Source: Yuukianura sp. NJ FZ-2021 (Eukaryota). From it: a stretch of 64,000 nucleotides of DNA. Of the stretch, positions 8,201 to 38,700 are shown piece by piece. A program made the position numbers and the translations under genes. Under the pieces are notes generated by a model, which was not told the origin of the DNA, searched no databases, and saw only the letters and a list, made by a program, of their open reading frames with translations. The stretch's first letter is position 1. Each line of letters begins with the position of its first letter. The stretch spans positions 9,052,001 to 9,116,000 of the forward strand of contig CM102289.1 of the NCBI GenBank assembly GCA_046563655.1, written 5' to 3'.

Positions 8201-10199
8201 CATCTGAGTGGTTTAGAAATTCAATTCACATGTAGTATACAAGTTTGTGAAAAAACTGTTTAAGTTTATATTACGTTAATGTACAAATGTGGAACACATA
8301 ACGATAAGATTAACTAACCTTTTTGTTGGATTTGCCAGTTGCTAATTTCAGACGCGTGCACAATTCTATGCAGTGTTTTTTCTTTACAACTTTTTGAATC
8401 TTTGATTATGCAATGTCCAGTCCAGCCAAAGGTGATCTGTCTGTGACCTAATGTTTCTTACGTGTCAACTCGTGGAAGTTTTAATTTATGTATACACGTT
8501 GCATAATCCAACATCAATGTAAAATGTGACACATTTACAAACTTTTACTACGACTTTAGGTAAATACACGCGGAAATAAGAAACAGACACATGCAAACTA
8601 AAATTTCGCAATTTAGCAAATGAAGGCCGACGGTTTTCTTGGAGGTGACCTTCAAATATTCTCCAGGTCAACTTTTTTTTTCTAAATGCAAAAGTCATCA
8701 TGTCATTTTCAAAATCTTGTCCACATTTTTATGTGAAAGACTTAAAAAGTTAACTTTGAAGTTTTCAGTTGAATTAAAGTTAAGTTTAAAGCGGATTAGA
8801 TTTTGAGAGAACAATAAACAGGATGAATGATATGAATTAAGCTTGAGAATAACATTGGATTTATTCTTGTAAAAGTTCAATTACTTTGTATTGTTTTTAG
8901 TTTTCTAAAGGTCATTGACCTGTTAAACGAGTTTTTCATGACACTACAATTCGAAACTGGTGCACAACTCTATTGTTCGCGGCGGGCAGAAATTCAAAGC
9001 CCGCGAAAATCAAATTTCCAGTGTCAACATGTTTGAAATTGAATTTGACATGTCACGTGTTTCTATCCTTCTCTCTTTTTTTCCTCTCTCTCTTTCGCTC
9101 CTTTGTCATTTTTCTTTTAAATCGAAACGTCACTGGAACGTAATCAATCGAAGGCTGTAGAAATTTTAGAAACTGCGGAGTAACGTTCTTGGAAAGTTTT
9201 TTGAAGTTGACCTTCAGTACTGGACGATAGACAGTAGTTTTTTGAGTTACTGTCTTTCAACGTTTCGATACCATTTCGATAGACGACAATCTCTGTAAGT
9301 ACCTTGAAGACTGAAACTAAGCTAATTGATTACTGATTGAAACTTTCAATTTGAAAGACATTCTATCAACGATCACAGAATCACAGGTAAAGTTAATCAT
9401 GGAAGATTTTTACGACTTAACTTCACTAAAGTTAAATTATGTCCAGCCAACATGGAAAAACATGAATCATACACCAAACCTAATGCATTACCTTCTGCTC
9501 TTGGTTTATTAGAATCCATCAATTCAAAATCCAGGTATTTTCAATCGTCATTCGAAGTCTTATCCAGGCAACAACCGCTGCTCCTCCAGTCGTCAATTGA
9601 CAGTCGCCCGATCAAGTTCCAGCTTTTTATTTCTCCATTTTTCAAACAAAGTCATACCCTACCCTGCCTTACATCACACTCTTCTGACTCAACGTTTTTA
9701 CAACGAAGTACAACGGATACCAACTGACAGATACCAAACAACAACAACTGGATCGACCAATAGCTGCTAAGAAGCATTGCATTTTCGCATTTTGGACACA
9801 CGGATAACGTGATTCTCCTTGATTCTCCGAAAAAAACGGTAAACACTTTTGACATTGTTTTTTGTTATTGCCAAAATCGTAGCTGAATCAGCAAGAGCGT
9901 ACGTGTCGCCGCAAAGTACAATGAAGAGAACAAGAGATATGCCACGGGGTGCTTGACGTGCTTCATGTCATGCCGATGACGACGTTACGGGGATCATCCT
10001 TGCCTCATGTAAATCGCTTTGGTGATTGCATGTGGTACTCCAGACAGACCACTCACTCACTACACAACTCGTGAACTGTTGCTGGACATGAAAGCTGTTT
10101 TACTACGGAAAAACCGTCATGTTTTGCATTCACTGCTGAGTTGGCTCAATTCTCATTTTTTTCTGTTGTTCTGTAGATTTCGCCTGAAGTTGTTGTGGC

Positions 10200-11878
10200 A
10201 TGATGGAAATGATGACGAAAGACTCTTCTGTGTATAAATGGGCCCACAAGGGAGCTGGGGCAATTCAGTCAGGATTTGCATTACTGTCGGCTCATCTCCT
10301 TACTGCACTCCTCTACTGTTGGCATTGGACAATAACTACTGCCAGCATCTGTCGTCAGAAGTATCCTCCAATTGCTGCTATTGAAAACTACTTTATCTCT
10401 GTCTGGAACTCTCTTTGCTCAACAATGACCGTGGAAGTTATTTCGGCGCCGGTGATACTTGAACCGCTTGGACTCCATGATTCATCTCCTCAACTCACGA
10501 CTGCTGCTGTGCCTATTCTCCGCCTCAATTCTGTTGCCATGGACGAATACTTGACTACTGCCAATACTGCTGAAACTGACGAAGTTCCTGAGTTTATTGG
10601 CAGTTGTAGTTACAATAGTAACTCAGACGACTGCGACAGTGGCCTAGTCGGTTCGGATCCAGACGAAAACGAATTGAGTTCAGATGATGCCGGATTTCAA
10701 GAAGAAAGTAACCGAATTCCACAAGAACCTTCTTATCGTCGAGACAGTGACTCTAGTGACATTTCGTCTGATGGGGGCCAAGAAGTCAATGAAAAACAAA
10801 CCAAAGAAGTTGCGACCAGACTCATCTCACAAGTTGAGTCCATGTTCTCAGATGAGCATTTGGCCAAAGATGGATTTCTGTTGAAACACGTTCGACGTCG
10901 GTCTGATGGCTTCGTTTCTCTTAAACTTGTTGCTGGACTGCGCAAGGTCAAACAAATTTCACGTGACTTTCCGACTGTGCTTGCGGCCTTGAAAGAATCG
11001 GGAAAGTTGGAAATCAATTCAGAGGGAACGAAGATTCGTCGTACAGAGGCCTTGACGCCGTACTTGAAGTCACTCCCTGTTGGAGGCGGGAATAAAGAGA
11101 AAGAGAATAAAGCATTTGGAACAAGCAACGGAGCATCTTCTGATTCTGCACAAGATGATCGGTAAGTCACAAAAAACGAAATTTTTAAAAATGATAAGAT
11201 TTTAATTACTTTTTTGAATTTTTGGAATGTTAATTAAAAGTTACCTTGAACTTTGGTTTTTGAACTTGAAACTTAATCTTATGTCTTGAATCTTGTTTTT
11301 GCAGAGTTTTGATGCGAAATGGCTACAACCACTCAAACGGTTACCAAAGACGGAATTCACGGAATAACAGCATCGTTTCTTCTGGAAGCTCCGCCCCGGG
11401 CAGTCGCAATGGCAGTTTCTGCAAGCAATCGAATGAACCTTTGTTTCGGAACATGATGGTCTACGCTCCAGATGAGCCGCAGGGTATTCGGCGCCGTGGT
11501 GGATCACTTCCGATGACCTCAGTCATGTCACATGGTGGCCAGCATCACTACTACCCAGCACCAGCACAAGATGCTGGACCGTTGAGCCAAAAACGCACCA
11601 GTCTCTTCCTGTCAACCAGCCCGCTGCAGGCCGAAGTCCCGAAGTTTCCAATTCGACCAAAGTCAAACAGCTACTGTGAAGGTCTTGGACTAAGAACTGG
11701 AAATGCTGGAAATACTGCCAATACTGGCACCAGCGTCTGGCTTCAGCGGAGAATGGAGTCGAGCCGTGCTGCTTCCGAGGGGTCGGTGGTCACCAATGGA
11801 GTCGTTCGTCAACCCCGTGGCCCGGATGGAACTCGAGGATTTGCTGCTGGGTCGCGTCGAACTCTGGCAGTTATGTAG
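10200..11878 (+). CDS. LARP6: La-related protein 6 (Acheron)-like; exons 10200-11161, 11305-11878
   Basis: La motif (QVESMFSDEHLAKDGFLLKHVRRRSDGFVSLKLVAGLRKVK...KIRR) and C-terminal SUZ-C/LSA motif VVRQPRGPDGTRGF; phase-2 GT-AG intron 11162-11304. Start codon uncertain. Confidence 0.85.
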
Positions 11879-12531
11879 ACAAAACCAGGATGAATTGATT
11901 TTACTTTTGTTTTTGTTTACGACGATCCTGCTACTCTTGTTTAACTTATTGTTTTTTAGATGTTTAAGTATTTATTTAGATTTTTTGTTTATTGTGAAAA
12001 CTTATTAGATAACTGCGCCTCTTTCTGTAGATCCGTTCAGCAACTGAGTTTTTACGTTGCTGATTTGATGGAAAAAGACTTGAAGTTTAAGCAGTTTGTG
12101 ACAAAGGGGGAGCCACTTGGTTCCCTACTACTAAAATATTGTACATTTTTGTTATTATTATTATTATATTTCTCATGACAAACCAAACCTGAGCAAATTG
12201 TTGCTCAATTTAAATGAGTAATCTATGAAGTTGATATTTTCAAAATTATTATTAACTTACTTCATAACCATGATGGAATAGTGTAGTAAAATTATATTAT
12301 CTTCAATTCAAAAACGTTGTTTTCTTTCAAAATCTGTAGCTGAGATTTTTGAAACTCGTGATTTATTTCATTTTTGATTGTTTATTTATTCTTAACCCAA
12401 GGAATTTGGTCGATTGGGATTGGTCGAAGAACTGACCAATCACTGGAGCCGTTACAAAACGAATGGCAGGGGGTTATAATTTTTATAACTTCTATAAAAC
12501 TTCCATGCTTTCTATAGCTTTCCATTCAGTT

Positions 12532-13821
12532 TTAGAAAAAAGTCGGAGCGACGTCCAGGACATTGTATGAGTCGTCAACCAGCAAAATTTGGCGCCATAG
12601 ACAAAACGTGTTACACGCATGGACGATATCGAAAGATAAAATATCTCCCGGATTTAGTTTATCCTCTTCGGATATTTCCATAAATGCATGTTGGTCCATC
12701 ACCTTAACAATCTTCCAGTGTTTTGGACAATCGCTGAAACAGCGTTTCTTTTCCTGTTCACCCTCACTTTTTGGCTGGACATGACAAACTTGAAATGGTT
12801 TTGGGAAGTCCACGTCCGTCGATACATCGCGCCGTCCGAAACCAATTATGGCCAGTGTCGGTTCCGGTCGTGACTGGACATAAGCTATGACCTTGAGAGC
12901 TGGTTGAAACATCTGAGCCATGTAACGCTCGGCCAATCGCAGCTCGGTTTCCTTGTACATTCCGACATCATGGATCGCGTAGCACCCCGGACGCAGAACC
13001 GGAACGATTTCTGTGGAAGCCGGGAAATATTTTTCAAGTAACGTATCGAGTTCGTCCGTCACAATGTCGAACCAAACCGATCCGGCTCCAGAGATGACCA
13101 GGTCCCGGCCATCGTCGAATGTCAATGACATAAACAGGAGAGCCTCAAACGCCTTGTTGCAAAACGCGCGAACTTCCGTTTCGGTTTTAAGGACTCCCTC
13201 AAAAAATTCTACTCCGGAAGTGACCAAAGTATTGTCAAACTTTTTGAGTTCTCTCAAAATTTCGGCCAATCCGGTCGCAGTTCTCACGCCTGTCCGTCCA
13301 CCGTCGACGCCGATTTCCACTAAAACACGGATTCGCTGCTTCTGCGCTCCAAAAAATGCTGCGAGTTCGTAGACATTGGTGACAGAGTCCACGAGACAGT
13401 AGAATTCCAACGTAGGATGCTTGGCCAGCATGTTAGAAATGATTTTCATGTTGGTTTTTCCTATCAGCTGATTGGCCATCAGGATTCGTTTGGTGGGGCC
13501 AATCTGTTGAACTACTAATGTCTGCTGGACATTGGCTGTCGTGAATCCCCACACTCCCTCCTTCCGCTGCTGGTCAATAATTTTGGGACACATTGTGGTC
13601 TTGACATGGGGACACAGTTTATACCCCATGTTAACAGCATACTTGGCCATCCGCTCAATGTTACTACACAGGACGGACTCAATGACGCAAACAGTCGGCA
13701 GACTTACGTCTTCCTCCAGGATGTTCCATTTCTGCGTTCCGGAGGTACCGTTCAGTATCGGTTTCCCGATTCCAAGACCTTTGTTCAGTTCCGAATCGGC
13801 GAATTCTACTGGATCGGACAT
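12532..13821 (-). CDS. Fold-type III PLP enzyme, bacterial D-serine dehydratase/'amino acid deaminase' (cryptic DSD)-like; intronless CDS
   Basis: PHVKT PLP-lysine motif, GGRTGVR, SGAGSVWFD, LRPGCYAIHD, GRRD, MDQHAF and an HxC metal-ligand motif (HAC). WNILEEDVSLP and the C-terminal WRQILLVD..Y.V.DV..TFF resemble proteobacterial homologues as I recall them. Confidence 0.88.
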   Translation of the reverse strand: MSDPVEFADSELNKGLGIGKPILNGTSGTQKWNILEEDVSLPTVCVIESVLCSNIERMAKYAVNMGYKLCPHVKTTMCPKIIDQQRKEGVWGFTTANVQQTLVVQQIGPTKRILMANQLIGKTNMKIISNMLAKHPTLEFYCLVDSVTNVYELAAFFGAQKQRIRVLVEIGVDGGRTGVRTATGLAEILRELKKFDNTLVTSGVEFFEGVLKTETEVRAFCNKAFEALLFMSLTFDDGRDLVISGAGSVWFDIVTDELDTLLEKYFPASTEIVPVLRPGCYAIHDVGMYKETELRLAERYMAQMFQPALKVIAYVQSRPEPTLAIIGFGRRDVSTDVDFPKPFQVCHVQPKSEGEQEKKRCFSDCPKHWKIVKVMDQHAFMEISEEDKLNPGDILSFDIVHACNTFCLWRQILLVDDSYNVLDVAPTFF

Positions 13822-13902
13822 AATTTTTTTTTACGTTTTTAACAGAAGTCAATGTATTGCGGGCGAACTGTGGAGGTCAAAGTTTCCGGAAAAAGCAAAA
13901 TC

Positions 13903-13964
13903 CTGAGAAAAATTGAATGAAAAATCGACTGAAACTTTCAAAAAAAATCTTAAGCCTCACTTAC
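13903..13964 (-). other. Predicted 62-nt spliceosomal intron in the 5' UTR of the dehydratase gene
   Basis: Minus-strand GTAAGT donor at 13964 and TTTTCTCAG acceptor at 13903, about 80 nt upstream of the ATG. Confidence 0.6.
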
Positions 13965-14382
13965 GTTAGTTCAGTTGCTCTGAAAACTTTTTTTTTGGAA
14001 TTTCGGAAATCTTAACTCAACTCTTCAAATGCTGTGGAATTCAAAATTTCCAAGCTTCTTTTTTCAAAACTGAAAGTGACAATGGTACACCCTCACGCCA
14101 CTGCAGTCTTAAGTAGTGTCAGAATCTTGTTGCTATCCTAGGTTAAACTAAAGCTAACCCGCTTTGTTTTTTCAAGTTTTACTGAAACAACAAAAGATAT
14201 GACTCGGAAAACTTGAAATTTTGAGTAAAGAAAGTACTTTTGAAAAATTTTGATATGGAGTTTGTTTATTTTTCGATGACTCAAACCTAACGTAAGGTTA
14301 TGTCAAGTACATTTGATGTACATAGGATGTTGATTAGAGGTCAAAGTTTATTGATTAGAGGTCATAGCTTATTGATTAGAGG

Positions 14383-15064
14383 TCACAACTCATTGACTGG
14401 TCCAACGATCGCCACTGCTTCAATTTCAACAAGAGCCTCAGGAATAGGCAAGCAAGCAACTTGATAAGCCATGCGAGCTGGAAATCTCTCTTTGAAGTCT
14501 GGAAATGGAAAAAAAATTGAATTGAAAAATTTTTATGGACTTTCAAAGTTTTGAATTTTCTTTTACATTCTCCATAGGCAGCATTCATGTCCTTAAAGTC
14601 TTTGATGTCTTTGAGTAACACGGTGACCTTCACAACTGAAATCCAAAAAACAGAAAAATGAAAAGATCATAATTTCAATAATTGGAAATTTTGGATTCAT
14701 GAAATTTTGATTCATTTTTTCATAAATTTTTTATACCATTTTTGAATGACGCTCCAGCAGCCTCCAGAATGTGTCCAATGTTATCCAGAGTTTGTCTCGT
14801 TTGACCTTTCATGCCTTCCACCAGCACTCCATCTTTCGTCATTCCAAGTTGTCCAGAAATGTACAAAGTCTTGTCAACCTGGACACCTTGACTTTTGTTA
14901 CAAAAAAAGAAAGTCATGTTACAAGGTCACGCAAGGTCACGCGTGTGACCTTCCATCATATAATACTCTTAGATTTCAACTTTTTACACTGTGTAATTTC
15001 ACCTGAGTGGAAGTGGAACTGGGTTGAGGTGTGGGCTTGTGATGATTTTCCGATTGGTGGCCAT
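14383..15064 (-). CDS. RIDA: RidA/YjgF/UK114 2-iminoacid (enamine) deaminase; exons 15064-15003, 14891-14737, 14635-14567, 14498-14383
   Basis: MATNRKIITS...SQGVQVDKTLYISGQLG...QTRQTLDNIGHILEAAG...VVKVTVLLKDIKDFKDMNAAYGEYF...FPARMAYQVACLP...VEIEAVA. The catalytic Arg (PAR) and the Glu of VEIE are retained. Confidence 0.95.
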
Positions 15065-15545
15065 TTTTTTCCCCAAAAATTTGAAAAACTTGAAGCTATT
15101 GGTTTTAAAATTGAACAAATTTAGCGCTGGAAAGACTGCTCCAACCAATTTCAAAAGCCAAAGTGAATTTTTTTTGCTTCCGAAGAGATTTCTTATGCTT
15201 ATGCAGAAGAAGATAGAAGTTTTTGGTTAGGTTTTATCGTGAGGGTGAATGAAAACATGACAAAGTGCTTTTGAAGAGTTCATGGCGTCATCCCGATGAC
15301 CTTGAACTCTTAAACTGTGCTTTTTTCATTTTGAACAACAATTTTGACTACAAAGGGAACTTTTATTTTGAAAACACCGAAATTTTACAAAAACATTGAC
15401 AAATTCGTTCACTACAAAAAGAGTGCTGCGTGATGGCGTTGTTTTGAAAACAGAACAAAAGTTGAAGTGATTTTTAATTGGAAGAAAAAGAAACCTCGAA
15501 ATTTTGAATTTCAAAACACCCGCGGTATTTTTTTTTTTGGAAAAA

Positions 15546-18500
15546 TTATGTCCGTTGACAAGCGTTCAGAACGTCGGTCATTTTCTGTTGAATTCCACCG
15601 ATTTCTCCCAGTTTGGAAGCGAGACGGGAGTTGATTTGGAGCAGAAGGCGGTTCCGTTCGTCTTGCATTTGAACAGTTTTGTTCAAAGTGACTTTCACGT
15701 CCTGAAATTTTCAAAATTTCAAAAAATGAAAATCAAAATTTTGAAAATACTAACATTGTCATCAAGTTCTTCTCGAAGCTTCAAAACTTCTTCTTCTTTC
15801 AGCGCCAATTGCCGATGAAGCGAGTCCGACCGTTTCCGGAGAATCTCGACTTGCTCAAAAAGCTTCAGCGTCGAACCACCATTGGATGAAACGTCGCCAC
15901 ACTTGTCGCCAGTGGTCGCCGGCGCTGCTGAATTGTCAGCATCTTGGATTTGGAGTTTCAATCGCTGATTTTCGCGCTTGTAAGACTCCAATTGCGATTT
16001 CCATTCTTCTACATTGGCAGCACATTCTTGCAGCGTCGTTGTGAGACGACTGTTGTTGGCTTTTAGATTTGACAGCTCGATTTCCCAGAGTTTGCTGTTG
16101 GCCGAACTAAAATGAAAATTTCCAAAAATTATTTCAAAATTGAGTTTCCTCTTTTCAAAATTTCAGTTTTTTCTACCTCTGCTGAAGTGCATTGCGCAAC
16201 TTTTCATTTTCTTGTTTCAGCAGCAGCGTTTCCGGAGTGTTGCGTCCTTCTTCGTCCTTGTCCAAGCACTGAATCCGTTTCGGACTGTCGACTTTAATTT
16301 TGCATGGACTTCCAAGTCCACATCCTGGAACGAGTGGCCGTCGCAGTTGATAAATGGAATTGGCATTCAAGTCAGTACTGGTTGAAGTAGGGCAGCCACT
16401 CCCAATGTTCCCAGCAGAAGTCGAAGAGTCAACCAATCCCTTGTTAACAGCATTCCCATTGGTTAATCTCGCATTCCCGCCAGAATTATTCGAAAGTCTT
16501 TGGGGACTGGACATGGAGAGGTGCAGAGTTTCTTTGATTTCGTCAAACTGCTCTTGGAACTGAAAAAAAGTAATGGATTCTGTTTGAACTTGAAAGTATA
16601 TAAGGTTTAGAGTAGGCAGAGGTCAAAGGTCAAAGGTCAAAGGTCACTGACCTTATCCAGATCCTGTTCCGTGTTGAATCCAATGCCGTAGACAGCATTT
16701 GACTTGGGGTCTGTCCACTGTCCAAACTTTTGTGACGTTTTGGTGAAAGTCATGGAAGGTCTCATGCAACTGTTGACAACAGCCTGCGGGAAACCAAAAG
16801 AAAAAGTGAAAGTGGCATGAAAATTTAAGTTGAAATTTTTTTGTTGTTGAAACTTTTGTTTTGAAATTTTAGTTTTTAGAAAGTATTTTTTGAAAAGAGT
16901 GGCCAGAGGGGGGTTTCTCATTTGTCATTTTGTGCTGGTGATGCCAAGTGCAGAGGTCCATTTGAAAAGAGAAAGTTGAGAATTCACAGCGTTATTTTGG
17001 TCGTGTCATTCGAAGTGACAGATTTATTGTGATGGGAGTACTATAATGTTTCAAAAGACTAAAAAAGACTAAAAAGACTAGAATTGCTAACCTTTGTTCC
17101 GTCGACACTTATGATTCGATACATTGCCCGCGTGGAGTCGTAGAAGAAGGAGACTGGCACGGCTGACTCAGTGGCTGGAACCCACGACTTCTTTGTCTCC
17201 TGGTTAATATGGAAGACATGGGCATGCACGGTCAGCAGAGGCTGCTGCCTAAAACAATAAATTTGAAATTTTTTTTGAAAACCAAACATTTTCAAAATTT
17301 TATCAGGTTCTTTACAAAAAACATGACATGAAACATTTTCATGTTTTTTTTTTTTGTTTCTGAAATAAATTGAATGTAAGTTCCTGTATGTCGTACTTTT
17401 CAGAGCTCATCTTCGTTCAAGCCGGTTAATTAACAACTAGTTGAGGTAAAAGTAATTGACTAATCAAGTTTTTGCACAGAGAATTTAAAAGAAAAACTCA
17501 AATCCAAACGAAGTGAGTTCTATTGCCCATGAGCACTGAAACACGATTTTACTTTTCAGAAATAAAAAAATCAAGGGTGGAAGAATTTTGAAAAATTTGA
17601 GATTACAAAAAGTCATCAAAATTCGTAAATAGGAAAAAAACATTTTGTGTTTCCATGGTGATTTTTTCTACTAAAAATTGAAATCATATAAAAACCCAAA
17701 ATGCATTGTGTCTGTACGAAAATTGAATTTGCCGCTTTTTCGCTTTTAAAAACACTTTTGCGTGTTTGAAAATTCGCTTCGTTGGATAGATTTTGACTTG
17801 ACACGGAAAACCATAAACCATGAAAACTAAAATCCTAAAAAAAATTTCTCCGGAAGCTTTCAGCAAAGCCCCAATTTCCGGACTTTGCAAAAGTGAAAAA
17901 AAAAATAGAAAAAAAGCAAAATAGAAATTTTGTCAAAAAAAAATGTTGGGAAACATTTTATCCAATTTCATGCATGTCTTGTTTGTGTTTTATGTAATGT
18001 TCACATACAGTGAAATTTGAAATTCGCGGGTTTTCTTTTTAAATCTTGTAAGATCCATTCATTACTCTTGAAAAGTCACCTTCTGGTGCTTCGGTCCGCG
18101 GAACAGCGGCATATTTCAAACTGCTCAAGTGAAAGTGAACATACTCCTTTGGCCTTAACATGTAGTAGCATGAGGAGGCTGTTGTGGAAGCATATGGCTA
18201 ACGAACTAAGAATCTGTCTCTAATTTAAATGCAGTGGAAACTCTTTTGTGGTCCATTTTCCAACAACCCCAATCCACATTTGTAGTTCCGGAAATAATTA
18301 AATTTGTGTCAAGCGGAGAGAACCAACCGTCCAAACTTTCTCCTCCGTTTACTCTCCAAAATTATTTTTTAAACTCAAATTACTTTTTACTTTATTACAA
18401 AAAGAAAAAAAAAACTTTTCAAAGTTGACTTTTCAGACTTTCTAAATTTGACTTTTCGTATTTTCTTTGAGAAAGAAAAGAGAAAGCCCATTTCCAAAAT

Positions 18501-34400: not shown

Positions 34401-35704
34401 ACATTCTTGACTCTTCAACAATAACATTCTAAAAAAACTTTTTTGAAAAAGGTGACCTTTGACCTCTGCTAAACAGTTTTTAGACGAAGGTTGAATCAGT
34501 AACTAGTGCCAGTTTTTAGTTTTTGAGTAAAAACACTCTGAGTTTTGAAAACCTCATTTGGAAGAGGAAGGATATGACAAGCAGAGAAAGTGATTACTTG
34601 TGAAAACTTTTTTAAACAAGTTTTTTTTAAACAGTTTTTTTAAAAAACGGTGCCGTTTGAACGACGCGCTGCTCCAAGACTGCTTGTTTAGTGATTTTTT
34701 AGATACTCAGTGTACAACTTCCTTTTAAATGAATTCCCTACGGTTTTTTTCTAAAGTGTTTTCTTCTACGGTGTTTTTTTGAAAGTGTTTTTTTTTGAAA
34801 ACCTTGCCTGCCTGTCTTAAGCACTGAATTGGATTCTTGTGCCAGCGTTTTTATAGTGTTTTAGTGTTGGCGTAGATTTTTTGAAAGTTTTTTCAACTTT
34901 AGATTTTGGTTCCCCCATTGGATTTTAGGTTCTTCTGTCACTGTAACTTCCTCAAGTCCATACCTAAAAATAGCTACAGTGTACACTAACATGTACTAAA
35001 AGACTACAGCTTTGTACGAGCAGCCAAACGAATCTTCATCTTTGCATCTTCCAAACTCATCTTCAGTTTTTTCAATTCTTCTTCAAAGTGCAGATGTGGA
35101 AAAATTAATTCCGAATTCCTCGATACAGACAGCGGAAGTCAAAATTTTGAACCCAAAATCAAGAAATTCAAAGCTAAAACTTTCATTTGGATTTTCGCGT
35201 TTTCAGAATTTATTCAAAAATTGAACTGTTTCAGTTCAAAATCAAAGTTGAAAAATTGAAATCTACTTTTCAAAATTTGGAAATTGCGACAAAGTGAAAA
35301 TTGGAGTTGGAGTGAAAGTGTTAAAACGTTTGTACTTTTGTGAAACTTGGAAATTCTTTGAAGTCGGAAAAACTTCTCCTTTTGTGTGTTTTTGTTTCAA
35401 ACAGGCAGTTCGTGGCTTTTGGAAGAAAACTTTTTAGCCTTTCAGTAAATTTGAAAATTTGCATTAGAGTGTGTCCATTTGAGTTATTTTTCATTTCAAG
35501 GTTTTTTGGCAAGAGGGATTTGCATTTCACTAAAACAAAAAAGTTGAATTTAAAAAAAAAGTTTTAAGTCAAGGAAAGTTTTCTGTGAAAGGTCATTTTT
35601 CATGTTCAAGTGAAGTGTGTCAGCCGTAAGGTAATTTCCGAGTTTTTCAAAAAAGTTTACCCAGTTTTTTGAAATTTTTGACTAAAAAGTGAACTTTCCG
35701 AGGT

Positions 35705-38700
35705 ATGAGTGCGGATGAAGTTGCAGAGTTGGCAGAAGCTATTCATTCCCACGCTGATGCACTTTACGAATCTTGGACAAAGGGGTCAAAGGTCAATCGG
35801 CCCAGAAGTCACTCTTCGACTGACTTTGAACATGGAATGAAAGACACTTTGGAATTGTTGGCCCATCCAGAACTCACTCCCACCCTTGAACATTTAGTGT
35901 CCAACTTTGTGCGGCAAGACAAAGCCAAGAGACTTCAAGGGCCCCCATCTCCACTTCAAGGGCCCCCCTCCTCCGTCGTCATGAGCAGTGCCGTCAAACC
36001 GAGTGTTTTGATTGGTCGAGGGAGAAGTGCTAGTCCAAAGCTTATGGATGGGGATGACCCCTACGGTGGGGGGTCACCTCAAGGTCAAAGGTCAAAGGCC
36101 CTTCCGAAGAGCATTTTAGAAGTTGTGCAGCGATTTGAAGCGCCACAAGTCGAACGAAGATCTCCGAGTCGTGTGCCGTCGCCATCACAATTGAACGCTC
36201 TGATTGGTGTAGGCCCGGTGACGTCAAAATCCATTCACGAAAAACTTTATGGAGTTCAGCGCCATATTCCAATAGTAGCAGAAGCGGGAAATTCAAAAAG
36301 TTCAAAAAAAGAACAAAATCCACAACTCATCCCGACGCTCCACTTCCAAAAAATTACTCCACCTCAGATATTTGCCAATAGTCAACTTGCAAGTACTGGC
36401 AGTACTCAATTGGGAAATACTGGCAGTACTTCTGGAAAAGAACACCGGATACCAATTGTCCAGAAAAATGATGACGAAGTTGATGCTGGCCCAGCATCTT
36501 CCAGCATCAGTCCAGCATTTTACGACCAAAACCAAACTAGTCAACTCCCGACAAACAATATTCACATCATCAATGTCAATATGAACGCGCCTCCAGCGCG
36601 GGAAAAACTTTTAAACAAAAGCCCGGGCATCCAAGCCCTGGAAAAAGAGGAGGAGCGACTGTTCGAAGCTCTGCGGACAGGTCAAGTTATACGAGAACAA
36701 GAATCGACCAATCAAAAAGCAGCTTTTCAGCGCAGGTCACCTGACACTGACATTTTAAACAACAATTCAAGAGTTGCTTTTGCCAAAGAACGGATTAGAC
36801 AAAGTCAAGAACATCCGTTGACTCAGCAGCGATTGGAACTCCAGAAAAGACTTCCAGCACCTTCGAGCAATTTAGCTGCAGCGATTGCGCTGCAACAAGG
36901 AAAAGACAAGTTTAAGCAAAACGGAGACACTAATGTTTCAAATCCTCCCGCTACTCGTCACCATCACATTCGAATTGAGCGGGAAAATTATGGAAATGGG
37001 GGACGGCATGCTTGGGCAAATCTTCAAAGATTGAATGGCGGAGTCAGTTCGGCAAGCGTTGCTGACCGGGTTCAACTTTTTGAAAAATATCCTGCTCATA
37101 TTGTAACTAACGGCACGAGTCATGCGCCACCTCATCAGAATACGACGAGTCCTGCACATCAACACACTCACCACCAAAACTTTGAAAAGCCAGTGATTTC
37201 TCAAAATCATGCTCCGCCGTCATACCAAAGTGGTTCTACGCATGTGCCAAAGGAAATCACGCATCCAATCAGGAAGCTTGAAACGCACTACCATAATTCT
37301 ACCGTAATTGGTCCAATAGGAGACCCACCAAAATACGAATCCCACGTTCATAAAATTAATTCTGAGGCGCCAAAATACGAACCACCAGAATATGGAAAAC
37401 GACAAACGCAAATTATTTCAAACATTTCAAATAATTCACCCAGTCATTTCAAAAATTCACTTCAAACTCAGCAGGTTACACAGCATAAACTTTTCTTTTC
37501 AAAAATTTTTTTTATTTTTTTTCAAATCTCTCTTTTTTTTGTGTGACGTGTTGAGGTCAATTAAGTTTAACTTCAAACGATTCTACTGTAAAAGACGGTG
37601 TGACTTTTATGATTAACTTTTAAGTTTTTATCTCTCCGACACACATTTATCCTGGAAATTTTTAATCAGTCAAACCTTTGACCAGGTTGGATAAAAAAAA
37701 TTGAGTGCAAATATTTAATTCATGAAAAAGACAATTGAAAATTTCTAATCAAAATGCGATTGAATGGTCCTTTCTGTGATTCAATTTGAAAAATTTCGGT
37801 GTACTTTTGTAGTTTTAATTCAATTTAGGGCATGACTCAGTCAGTATGCAGAGGAATCAGTTTTTAGCATTTTTACAGGAATTGATTTGTGTTAAACGTG
37901 TAAATGTGAAGGTGACTCCTTAAAAATTTTTACAACTTAGGAAAATTTTTTACACCTATTGTAGATTTTGCACAGTTTTACAGGTTTTGCATAATTTTGC
38001 AAGTTTTGAGCAAAAATTTGTGTAGGTTGATGAGGATGGGGTGTAATAATGGGTGTTAATTTTCATAAAATAATTAGTATAAGTGCAGTTTAAAGTTTGT
38101 ATTTATTCAAAAATTGATTTATGTTTTTACAGCCCGATTTTTTGACTTCTAAGCATGGTCGAAGCCCCACCTCTTTGGAGAATTTGCGAAGGAGTAACAA
38201 GGAGTCAGTGCCAAGGTTTTACTGGCCAGAAGGAAAGCCTCCGCCTACAGCCTACATCCAACAGACATTAGCCAAGGCCGAGGCGGAATTTTCAAAATTT
38301 CATGCATCAACTACGGCCACGACGAGTCTAAATTACGAAGAATTTGGCAAAGTAAGGCAACTATTTCACACTTTACTTTGTGATGATGATGTAACTTACA
38401 TGATGATGTAATGCAAATGAGGAAAAAGACAAGAACTGCTGTAAAATCAGTTATGTTTATTTATGCTTTTAGTTTCTGCAAAGTCTGGGGATTAGTCTAT
38501 ACTGGAAAAAGCCGTTTTGGACAGCCCTGGGCCTTGTGCCTTCATCTACACTTCAACTGGAGCCCTTCAAGGGCTTCTACCGAACCCTTATTTCACAGTG
38601 TCCAGATGAAGCCTCGAGGTTCATGCGTATTTTATGGACAGCCAGAACTGTACTTACGGCAAATGAAGGCGATTTGTCAACATTCCCTTGCGGAAAAGCT

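Follow-up and report, generated by a model that had tools for sequence, protein, structure and literature searches.

A deaminase gene of bacterial type in a springtail chromosome, with altered residues near its cofactor lysine and putative metal site

Few animals carry as many foreign genes as springtails do, and we know of few such genes whose function has been worked out. The locus studied here raises the question of where an intronless gene for a bacterial-type amino acid deaminase, lying in a springtail chromosome, comes from, and of what its protein does in the animal that carries it. The window, i.e., the whole stretch of DNA that was analysed, comprises 64,000 nucleotides of Yuukianura sp. 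NJ FZ-2021 (assembly GCA_046563655.1, contig CM102289.1, positions 9,052,001 to 9,116,000), and all positions below refer to it. A preliminary description of this DNA had proposed horizontal transfer with signs of domestication. The features of the locus are as follows.

10188..11878, plus strand: native LARP6-like gene with a La domain and a SUZ-C motif; GT..AG intron at about 11162-11304
12362..12390, minus strand: three AATAAA hexamers (starts 12390, 12386 and 12367), candidate poly(A) signals
12532..13821, minus strand: CDS without introns, 429 codons and a stop; its product is a PLP enzyme of fold-type III, similar to 3GWQ and of the 'amino acid deaminase / D-serine deaminase' type
13903..13964, minus strand: putative 5'-UTR intron of 62 nt, predicted only; GTAAGT ... 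TTTCTCAG, ending in CAG
15719..17406, minus strand: native Homer-like gene with a WH1 domain exon and coiled-coil exons; GT..AG intron at about 16108-16175

The ORF scan yields an uninterrupted frame of 429 amino acids on the minus strand, from ATG to TAA (12532..13821), which is the sole ORF longer than 202 aa within 9-18 kb. The LARP6-like gene, whose intron measures about 143 nt, is convergent with the deaminase gene and faces its 3' end; upstream of the deaminase gene, on the same strand, lies the Homer-like gene, whose intron measures about 68 nt. An intronless CDS of 429 codons between clearly animal genes, as described earlier, is what the locus contains: the frame has no break, and each neighbour has a GT..AG intron. 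When the LARP6-like exon was used as the query, the La + SUZ-C clusters of the protein atlas were commonest in Arthropoda, all at scores below 0.9 and to be taken as a lead only. Around the deaminase gene, repeat scans gave neither terminal repeats nor transposon ends as marks of an insertion.

The window protein presents a two-domain architecture, in which an alanine-racemase-like barrel (PF01168, 38.6 bits against a cut-off of 24.1) is followed by a beta domain (PF14031, 59.5 bits against a cut-off of 22). The 3gwq_A sequence aligns with it in full length (E 1e-90, residues 13-429), and the AF2 model of the protein (pLDDT 92.8) yielded Foldseek TM values of 0.83/0.87 against 3gwq, with matches to 3gwq, 4v15, 3wqc and 3anu extending over about 420 columns. 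K74 aligns with the lysine of PHGKT in 3gwq and with Lys59 of PHAKAHK in 4v15, which an extract of PMC4401734 gives as the PLP lysine of AxDTA. Judged by full-length similarity and tree placement, the window protein is a member of the 3GWQ-type subfamily. The only NCBIfam result was a sub-threshold BhcC match (61.7 bits, with a cut-off of 690), and the protein atlas returned solely bacterial D-serine dehydratase clusters for the deaminase query.

The best 120 of 2790 matches are 41-45% identical to the window protein, and all the named ones are bacterial. All seven GTDB loci found are bacterial as well, and in them the deaminase is accompanied by an Amidohydro_3 gene (4/7 loci), a GntP permease (3/7) and parts of a peptide-type ABC transporter (3/7), a neighbourhood that would fit D-amino-acid catabolism. 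The GntP neighbour had also led to the idea of D-glucosaminate dehydratase as the bacterial function, which was dropped after a search gave only the unrelated DgaE enzyme. In the careful tree (IQ-TREE, 50 rows), the window is placed in a nine-row clade with support 100/99, and this clade is nested in a 34-row bacterial group with support 98/95. Its surroundings in the tree are 'amino acid deaminases' of Proteobacteria and Acidobacteria, with additional contigs of bacterial scale placed outside the clade. The only named rows in the clade are Allacma fusca (P0140, CAG7716565.1) and Folsomia candida (P0293, Fcan01_12903), and the label springtail clade used here is based on these two and the window, of nine rows. 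No animal other than springtails is named among the 120 + 150 + 120 best matches listed; hits widespread across Metazoa in species-tree order, which the preliminary description had set against transfer, were not seen there. Its proposal of a horizontal origin is supported by the bacterial matches, by this nesting and by contigs that run across both borders of the gene.

These contigs, assembled from short reads (X2), span 11952-13249 and 13319-14025, with an even depth of 20-24 in the deaminase gene and 14-45 in the flanks; as they possibly come from the assembled sample itself, they exclude a misjoin and do not represent an independent individual. No coverage break, which had been named as a sign of misassembly, was found at the gene borders. 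In run X5 (organism B, 0.3-7x), both flanks and the 3' end of the CDS are covered, with no cover listed for 12913-13815, a gap without weight in either direction at such a depth. Intergenic GC on the two sides of the gene is 0.30 and 0.36, and the GC3 of the gene is 0.54, a value above that of host exons (0.36-0.51) and below that of bacterial homologues (0.58-0.92). The window copy is integrated in the chromosome between native genes, and its composition is shifted towards that of the host.

The 5'-UTR intron predicted earlier at 13964-13903 has its GTAAGT and CAG in the sequence, 82 nt upstream of the ATG, and shares the style of the host introns of about 68 and 143 nt; the intron itself is a prediction. 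The minus strand of the window has 17 copies of GTAAGT but just three instances of a crude intron-like pattern, so a position at this place by chance is unlikely. No ATG was found in the 200 nt upstream of the deaminase start. The minus-strand AATAAA hexamers, also noted earlier, are located 142-170 nt downstream of the stop; with 57 copies per 64 kb on the minus strand, AATAAA is frequent in DNA so rich in AT, and the trio is weak evidence for poly(A) signals of the deaminase gene. The claim of domestication is upheld in part, by the GC3 of the gene, the AT-rich flanks, a plausible UTR intron and the intact frame.

Two explanations would do away with a transfer into the animal. Bacterial contamination or misassembly, which would put the gene outside the animal genome, is the least likely reading, with a probability close to nil. 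It would agree with the absence of introns and with top full-length matches that are bacterial by score, but at each border short-read contigs continue from intergenic host sequence into the gene, with a depth equal to that of the flanks, GC3 is host-like within AT-rich surroundings, and the nearest relatives are springtail proteins, bacterial identity to the window protein never exceeding 45% among the best matches listed. Moreover, an intron-like break apparently interrupts one relative, and the methods of PMC5490193, in the extract available, report one springtail relative as linked by PacBio reads to native genes. Only a little less improbable is an ancient eukaryotic gene that was passed on by vertical descent and disappeared from most animals. 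Animals do possess distant PF14031 proteins, e.g., chicken D-serine dehydratase (TM 0.69/0.78 to the model), and eukaryotic members could hide among the database matches, most of which are nameless. However, the chicken-type enzyme is missing from the sequence matches at E <= 0.001, the clade sits inside one bacterial subgroup, and springtails are the only animals named among the best matches counted above. The text of the published tree, in an extract from which the topology is absent, lists Fcan01_12903_PA among Burkholderiales names; according to the same partial source, that tree also contains Arion, Branchiostoma and Trichoplax (PMC5490193).

The transfer is old, common to springtails and already in print. 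It is not private to this genome: the 2017 Folsomia genome paper, whose final HGT list has 809 genes, includes Fcan01_12903 in one of its HGT validation trees (PMC5490193, Additional file 3, p. 268). By its placement within a donor group and its linkage to native, intron-bearing genes, the window gene resembles the springtail genes of bacterial origin that have been described for Folsomia candida and Orchesella cincta. A literature search for springtail or arthropod HGT of a D-serine dehydratase or amino acid deaminase found no relevant paper, and the searchable supplement files of the Orchesella cincta paper contain no matching term.

What is new here is a divergent subclade with PHVKT and a rewritten metal-site motif, composed of the window, P0160, P0399 and P0172 (support 100/98). 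Its stem has a length of 0.48 and the terminal branch of the window one of 0.72 (IQ-TREE). The sister subclade (94/90) includes Allacma fusca, Folsomia candida and three unnamed rows. The window protein is 46-53% identical to its closest relatives. The motifs concerned are the following.

13597..13611, minus strand: PHVKT, residues 71-75, with K74 as the PLP-binding lysine by the 3gwq_A alignment; 3GWQ reads PHGKT
12826..12837, minus strand: GRRD, residues 329-332; bacterial relatives and 3GWQ read GKRD
12595..12624, minus strand: V-HAC-NTF-CLW, residues 400-409, the putative metal-site motif, with H401 and C403 kept

The family motifs given in the preliminary description agree with the 3gwq_A alignment: PHGKT, GKRD and HPCLTFDKW in 3GWQ correspond to PHVKT, GRRD and HACNTFCLW (residues 401-409, 12595-12621) in the window. 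The PLP lysine and the HxC residues are retained, as had been stated, H401 and C403 being each present in 120/120 bacterial relatives. By analogy this pair would hold the metal: the ligands of AxDTA are His347/Asp349 in the extract of PMC4401734, and PDB titles describe the H351A and C353A mutants of D-THA dehydratase as metal-free, with sequence alignments to both enzymes that stop short of the HxC region. According to the same extract, the metal of the relatives adjoins PLP, is held by His-x-Cys/Asp and binds the beta-hydroxyl of the substrate (PMC4401734).

V73 replaces a glycine that is invariant in 120/120 bacterial relatives, and is also found in P0172 and P0399; PHVKT is present in all three members of the divergent subclade that cover the position, and the longer string LCPHVKTTMCP is common to the window, P0172 and P0399. 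Since D-threo-3-hydroxyaspartate dehydratase (3wqc) likewise reads PHVKT, a valine before the lysine is, by analogy, compatible with catalysis. S400V, P402A, D407C and K408L depart from columns at least 90% conserved over 69 non-springtail family members, where D407 is invariant (69/69) and K408 nearly so (66/69); the window has lost both, and P0160 has S and A in their place with the remainder kept. The subfamily-invariant PHGKT and SHPCxTFDKW are absent from the window protein, and at G73V, P402A, L404N and D407C it carries residues seen in 0/120 bacterial members. PHVKT and the DK loss are specific to the divergent subclade, whereas GRRD and HAC also occur in Folsomia.

In terms of conservation, the window retains 62 of 68 family-wide conserved columns, including K74, R176, H401 and C403, and four of the six deviations fall within residues 400-409 (hypergeometric P = 0.0012, for a region chosen post hoc). 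It is off the consensus of the 120 bacterial members at 34/148 columns (32/146 in another alignment), compared with 0-8 columns and a median of 1/148 for the bacterial rows; the springtail clade overall departs at 15-23% of the conserved columns. Nine of the 18 listed CDS variants are synonymous, with about four expected (binomial P = 0.010), in a set selected automatically from mixed haplotypes and a paralogue. The frame of 1290 nt is intact despite the distance to its closest relatives.

Given this divergence, the protein might be thought to be losing its function. A transferred gene in slow decay, held open by chance or having lost constraint recently, and catalytically dead without the metal-site Asp-Lys, is an unlikely explanation, albeit the strongest of the competitors. 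It is favoured by the replacement of D407 and K408 at almost invariant columns, by the largest number of consensus departures of any full-length clade member, by the long terminal branch, and by the departures of the springtail clade as a whole, which relaxed selection would also produce. On the other hand, none of the 429 codons is hit by a stop or a frameshift, the conserved columns are largely kept with their catalytic residues, the deviations are clustered rather than spread, and the listed variants lean synonymous. The derived PHVKT loop is moreover identical in three sequences that are about 46-50% identical overall, and because P0160 also replaced D407 and K408 while keeping the rest, that change is an old and maintained one. 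Slightly less probable still is a folded, selected protein that is no D-amino-acid dehydratase and either runs another PLP reaction (aldolase, racemase) or binds without catalysis. Dehydratases, aldolases and racemases do share one fold, single residue changes switch the reaction (Y265A turns alanine racemase into a D-threonine aldolase, in the extract of PMC4401734), and the metal-site motif of the window protein departs from the family form. Yet the window protein retains both the PLP lysine and the HxC residues, which relatives use for beta-hydroxy-D-amino-acid chemistry, and no pointer to any specific alternative reaction emerged.

The reading we prefer, with a probability of roughly 0.72 as a whole, leads from a soil-bacterial deaminase through a springtail ancestor and a split of clades to an integrated, remodelled D-amino-acid enzyme. 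The ancestral gene would have been a soil-bacterial 'amino acid deaminase' of the 3GWQ type, with fold-type III and a dependence on PLP and a divalent metal. It would have entered a springtail ancestor and been retained in several springtails, and a subsequent split, most likely via duplication, would have separated a conservative group from a fast-evolving one to which the window copy, with its intronless coding region and probably a short 5'-UTR intron, belongs. Bacterial ancestry, physical linkage, an intact frame and the kept PLP lysine, Arg176 equivalent and HxC are the observed part of this account.

We infer that the window protein is still an enzyme, which would form an external aldimine with a D-alpha-amino acid and use the metal to activate the beta substituent for elimination, as D-serine and D-threo-3-hydroxyaspartate dehydratases do. 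G73V, A70C and L95T near the lysine, together with S400V, P402A, D407C and K408L at the metal site, may have altered the preference for substrate or metal, though the loss of D407 and K408 might just as well mean that activity is gone. As a hypothesis, the shift in specificity hinted at earlier finds support in altered motifs that are common to relatives of 46-53% identity and clustered at the metal site. That the duplicated copy (PHVKT, HxC without DK) was rebuilt near the lysine and the metal site for a new substrate or metal preference is nevertheless a tentative idea, which we hold to be somewhat improbable as it stands; Cys407, one helical turn from Cys403, may serve as an added thiol ligand. 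If true, an animal would have evolved a new activity on D-amino acids or beta-substituted amino acids from a bacterial scaffold, perhaps handling a specific compound of a microbial or fungal diet.

D-amino acids are abundant in bacterial cell walls and in soil, and a plausible role of the enzyme would be the disposal or use of those in the microbial diet. A bacterial D-amino-acid deaminase kept across deep springtail lineages, with one branch remodelled at the cofactor and metal sites, would offer a small and testable example of how an enzyme evolves in an animal after its transfer, and may bear on how soil animals handle D-amino acids. Nothing is overturned, because the transfer is already in a published supplement.

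In comparison with known systems, 3GWQ (Bxe_A4060, a putative D-serine deaminase of Paraburkholderia xenovorans LB400; P0333) presents the same PLP lysine, Arg176 equivalent and HxC as the window protein, and it and the 'amino acid deaminase' proteins of Burkholderiales, Cellvibrio, Pseudomonas and Acidobacteriaceae are 41-45% identical to it. The window gene differs from these bacterial genes in its eukaryotic context and host-like composition. The literature search found no published activity for any 3GWQ-subfamily enzyme, 3GWQ being cited there only as a molecular-replacement template, and for this reason the ancestral substrate is given as an inference. The D-threo-3-hydroxyaspartate dehydratase of Delftia sp. 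HT23 (3WQC), chicken D-serine dehydratase (3ANU) and the D-threonine aldolase of Alcaligenes xylosoxidans (4V15) have the same fold-type III barrel and beta domain, with a TM on the query of 0.67-0.73 (Foldseek), yet their structural-alignment identity to the window is 15-21% and their sequence matches cover the N-terminal barrel alone; because the subfamilies differ, no substrate is transferred from them. Closest among the named proteins in kind are Fcan01_12903 (P0293, 455 aa) and CAG7716565.1 (P0140, 426 aa), 'D-serine dehydratase-like domain-containing proteins' of the same two-domain length class and 40-42% identical to the window protein. Both keep PHGKT and TFDKW, whereas the window has neither, and the Folsomia protein shares GRRD and HAC with it.

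The ORF scan recovered the uninterrupted frame reported in the preliminary description, and found no second frame above 202 aa in the interval from 9 to 18 kb. The frame and its surroundings are as follows:

Ending at 11878, plus strand: gene of LARP6 architecture (La domain plus SUZ-C motif), from the domain search
Starts at 12390, 12386 and 12367, minus strand: AATAAA hexamers, candidate poly(A) signals, from the sequence (the window holds 57 such hexamers per strand)
12532..13821, minus strand: uninterrupted ORF of 429 codons, from the ORF scan
13964..13903, minus strand: candidate 5'-UTR intron of 62 nt, opening with GTAAGT at 13964 and closing at 13903 with a pyrimidine-rich CAG, from the sequence
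From 15719 upward, minus strand: Homer-like gene (WH1 domain plus coiled-coil exons), from the domain search

The encoded protein scores above the Pfam cut-offs for PF01168, the alanine-racemase-type N-terminal barrel (38.6 bits), and for PF14031, D-ser_dehydrat (59.5 bits). Its sole close solved-structure match is 3gwq_A (E 1e-90), the putative D-serine deaminase Bxe_A4060 of Paraburkholderia xenovorans LB400, where query residues 13-429 align to chain residues 16-426; the alignment shows no extra N-terminal segment compared with the bacterial proteins. The D-threonine aldolases, 3-hydroxy-D-aspartate aldolase and D-threo-3-hydroxyaspartate dehydratase are far weaker matches in the structure database, over the barrel only. 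The AlphaFold2 model obtained from a 76-row alignment is of high confidence (pLDDT 92.8, pTM 0.91); it matches 3gwq with TM scores of 0.83/0.87, and superposes also on D-threonine aldolases, D-THA dehydratase and chicken D-serine dehydratase.

A search of 5.8 billion clusters yielded 2790 matches, the best 120 of which are 41-45% identical to the window's protein, and all named ones among these are bacterial (Acidobacteriaceae, Cellvibrio, Paraherbaspirillum, Granulicella and others). Seven GTDB relatives, from Bordetella, Pseudomonas asuensis, Terracidiphilus and other bacteria, present 41-43% identity. An exhaustive phmmer search of 1.84 billion representatives gave 2455 matches, with no full-length relative closer than 44% among them; the nearer ones are the fragments P0160 (54%) and P0172 (50%). 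P0399 came from a search limited to shorter proteins. Look-ups and a profile search identified two animal members, P0140 as Allacma fusca CAG7716565.1 and P0293 as Folsomia candida Fcan01_12903.

The tree was inferred with IQ-TREE (LG+C20+F+G4 PMSF) from 50 rows hand-chosen from the matches over 429 columns. These rows comprised every one of the nine clade members, 18 bacterial proteins that carry names, two translated GTDB loci, seven unnamed close matches and 16 more distant representatives. The window's copy falls in a nine-row clade (support 100/99), labelled springtail on the basis of its two named rows, which divides into a subclade of the window, P0160, P0399 and P0172 (100/98) and a sister subclade of A. 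fusca, F. candida, P0138, P0288 and P0139 (94/90). This clade is nested in a 34-row group (98/95) of Burkholderiales, Cellvibrio, Pseudomonas, Andreprevotia, Oxalobacteraceae and Acidobacteriaceae proteins; given there is no firm branching order inside the group, the donor is not narrowed any further. FastTree on 191 rows gives the same picture.

The bacterial best matches and the nested position of the clade support horizontal transfer, as the preliminary description proposed, but not a transfer confined to one genome: it is ancient and shared between springtails, and has been on record for Folsomia since 2017. The F. candida genome paper (PMC5490193) describes 809 foreign genes checked by PacBio linkage and trees, and Fcan01_12903_PA appears on page 268 of its Additional file 3, which holds those validation trees. 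In the text of that page only labels are legible, not topology, and they include Herbaspirillum, Burkholderia glathei and Collimonas, as well as Arion, Branchiostoma, Trichoplax and Phytophthora sequences. No paper text connecting D-serine deaminase or dehydratase to springtails or to arthropod HGT was found in the literature. The new element is a sister lineage that evolves fast and whose cofactor and metal site has been rewritten, a change kept across divergent members.

An assembly artefact would appear as a coverage break or misjoin at the gene borders. When contigs from public short-read runs, which may derive from the assembled sample rather than from an independent individual, were aligned to 9000-18000, contigs of run X2 crossed both the 3' border (11952-13249) and the 5' border (13319-14025) at ~99% identity, and X2 depth was 20-24 in gene bins versus 14-45 in flanking bins. 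These contigs and depths show neither fault at the borders. Exons farther from the gene are PTAR1-like, ABC-transporter, ZFR-like and RasGAP, and both neighbouring genes contain short GT..AG introns (~143 nt in the LARP6-like and ~68 nt in the Homer-like gene). The CDS has a GC of 0.48 and a GC3 of 0.54, compared with a GC3 of 0.36-0.51 in ten native exon ORFs of the window and 0.58-0.92 in seven bacterial homologues; intergenic GC on either side is 0.30 and 0.36.

The candidate UTR intron lies 82 nt upstream of the ATG and resembles host introns in style, and the 200 nt before the start codon contain no upstream ATG. Since GTAAGT occurs 17 times on the window's minus strand, and a crude donor-plus-acceptor pattern three times, its placement is unlikely to be due to chance.

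Other features of the window were observed. All four runs show very high word depth at 15705-15748 and 16622-16645 (reaching ~14,000 in run X1, versus ~200 nearby), and dozens of contigs start or end there, a pattern indicative of a short dispersed repeat or a low-complexity word edging the Homer-like exons. A 21-nt tandem repeat (3.2 copies, 89% matches) occupies 14330-14396, ~500 nt upstream of the deaminase start codon. On the plus strand, 35693-37546 holds a one-piece, Ser/Pro/Gln-rich open frame of 617 aa, unusually long for one exon in this intron-dense window, with no Pfam family at E <= 0.001.

The deaminase frame is intact although its nearest relatives are just 46-53% identical. Nine of 18 listed CDS variants are synonymous versus ~4 expected from 291 synonymous and 996 non-synonymous sites (binomial P = 0.010), in a small, software-picked sample drawn from a mixture of haplotypes and at least one paralogue. 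That paralogue is probably a diverged second copy elsewhere in the same genome, given a 1495-base contig of run X3 matches 13078-13405 at ~85% identity with no gaps, then departs from the locus, at a depth (127.8) near the single-copy depth of that run. Lower-depth, gapped contigs of ~85% identity also cover 12733-13215. Within the window's subclade, P0399 and P0160 lie on one Logan contig of 9,718 bases as two halves of one relative: P0399 loses register directly after GVPGG, running into unrelated residues, and P0160 picks up ~36 residues later, which suggests an intron or frameshift in that copy.

At 146 columns at least 95% conserved across 120 bacterial relatives, the window departs at 32, mostly with residues found in none of the 120 (A70C, G73V, F82I, L95T, W312I, P402A, L404N and D407C). 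After re-alignment including clade members, departures from 148 consensus columns number 0-8 in bacterial rows (median 1), 22-25 in the four full-length conservative springtail-clade rows, and 34 in the window. By these counts, evolution has been faster throughout the clade than in its bacterial kin, and fastest in the window's copy. When 69 non-springtail rows at 30-45% identity are taken as a wider family sample, the window retains 62 of 68 columns at least 90% conserved, and its six departures are A90V, L201T, S400V, P402A, D407C and K408L. Four of them fall in residues 400-409, a stretch that holds eight of the conserved columns (hypergeometric P = 0.0012, for a region picked post hoc).

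In this fold, a lysine carries PLP, and a divalent metal ~5 A from the cofactor, ligated by His-x-Asp/Cys, binds and activates the substrate beta-hydroxyl, as described in PMC4401734. The window retains the PLP lysine (K74) and the HxC pair, as had been claimed, and also R176, the arginine pairing with PLP O3', aligned by eye to AxDTA Arg157. The family motifs given in the preliminary description prove to be exactly those of 3GWQ, and its readings of the window were likewise accurate: PHGKT becomes PHVKT, GKRD becomes GRRD, and HPCLTFDKW becomes HACNTFCLW. GRRD and HAC are found in Folsomia as well; LCPHVKTTMCP is identical in the window, P0172 and P0399, and P0160, with HPCNTFSAW, has also lost the Asp-Lys. 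The model places Cys407 a single helical turn away from Cys403 (helix 402-406), from where it could, speculatively, approach the metal.

Among the seven bacterial loci, Amidohydro_3 (a D-aminoacylase-type amidohydrolase) adjoins the deaminase gene in four, a GntP-family permease in three, and peptide-type ABC transporter parts in three. Two contexts are seen: Amidohydro_3, often with the permease (L003, L004, L005 and L007), accompanied in Pseudomonas asuensis by an RpiR regulator; and the transporter, SBP_bac_5 with BPD_transp_1 (L001, L002 and L006), which in Bordetella stands beside seryl-tRNA synthetase. Such a neighbourhood is what catabolism of D-amino acids taken up by the cell would fit; the GntP family includes DsdX, the D-serine permease of E. 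coli. From this context and the retained K74, R176 and HxC, we infer that the window's gene would encode a cytosolic PLP- and metal-dependent D-amino-acid deaminase/dehydratase, whose substrate or metal preference may be altered. Its lineage is a good candidate for post-transfer neofunctionalisation. A valine preceding the lysine is compatible with catalysis, given D-threo-3-hydroxyaspartate dehydratase, whose metal-site mutants H351A and C353A are named in PDB titles, has PHVKT like the window.
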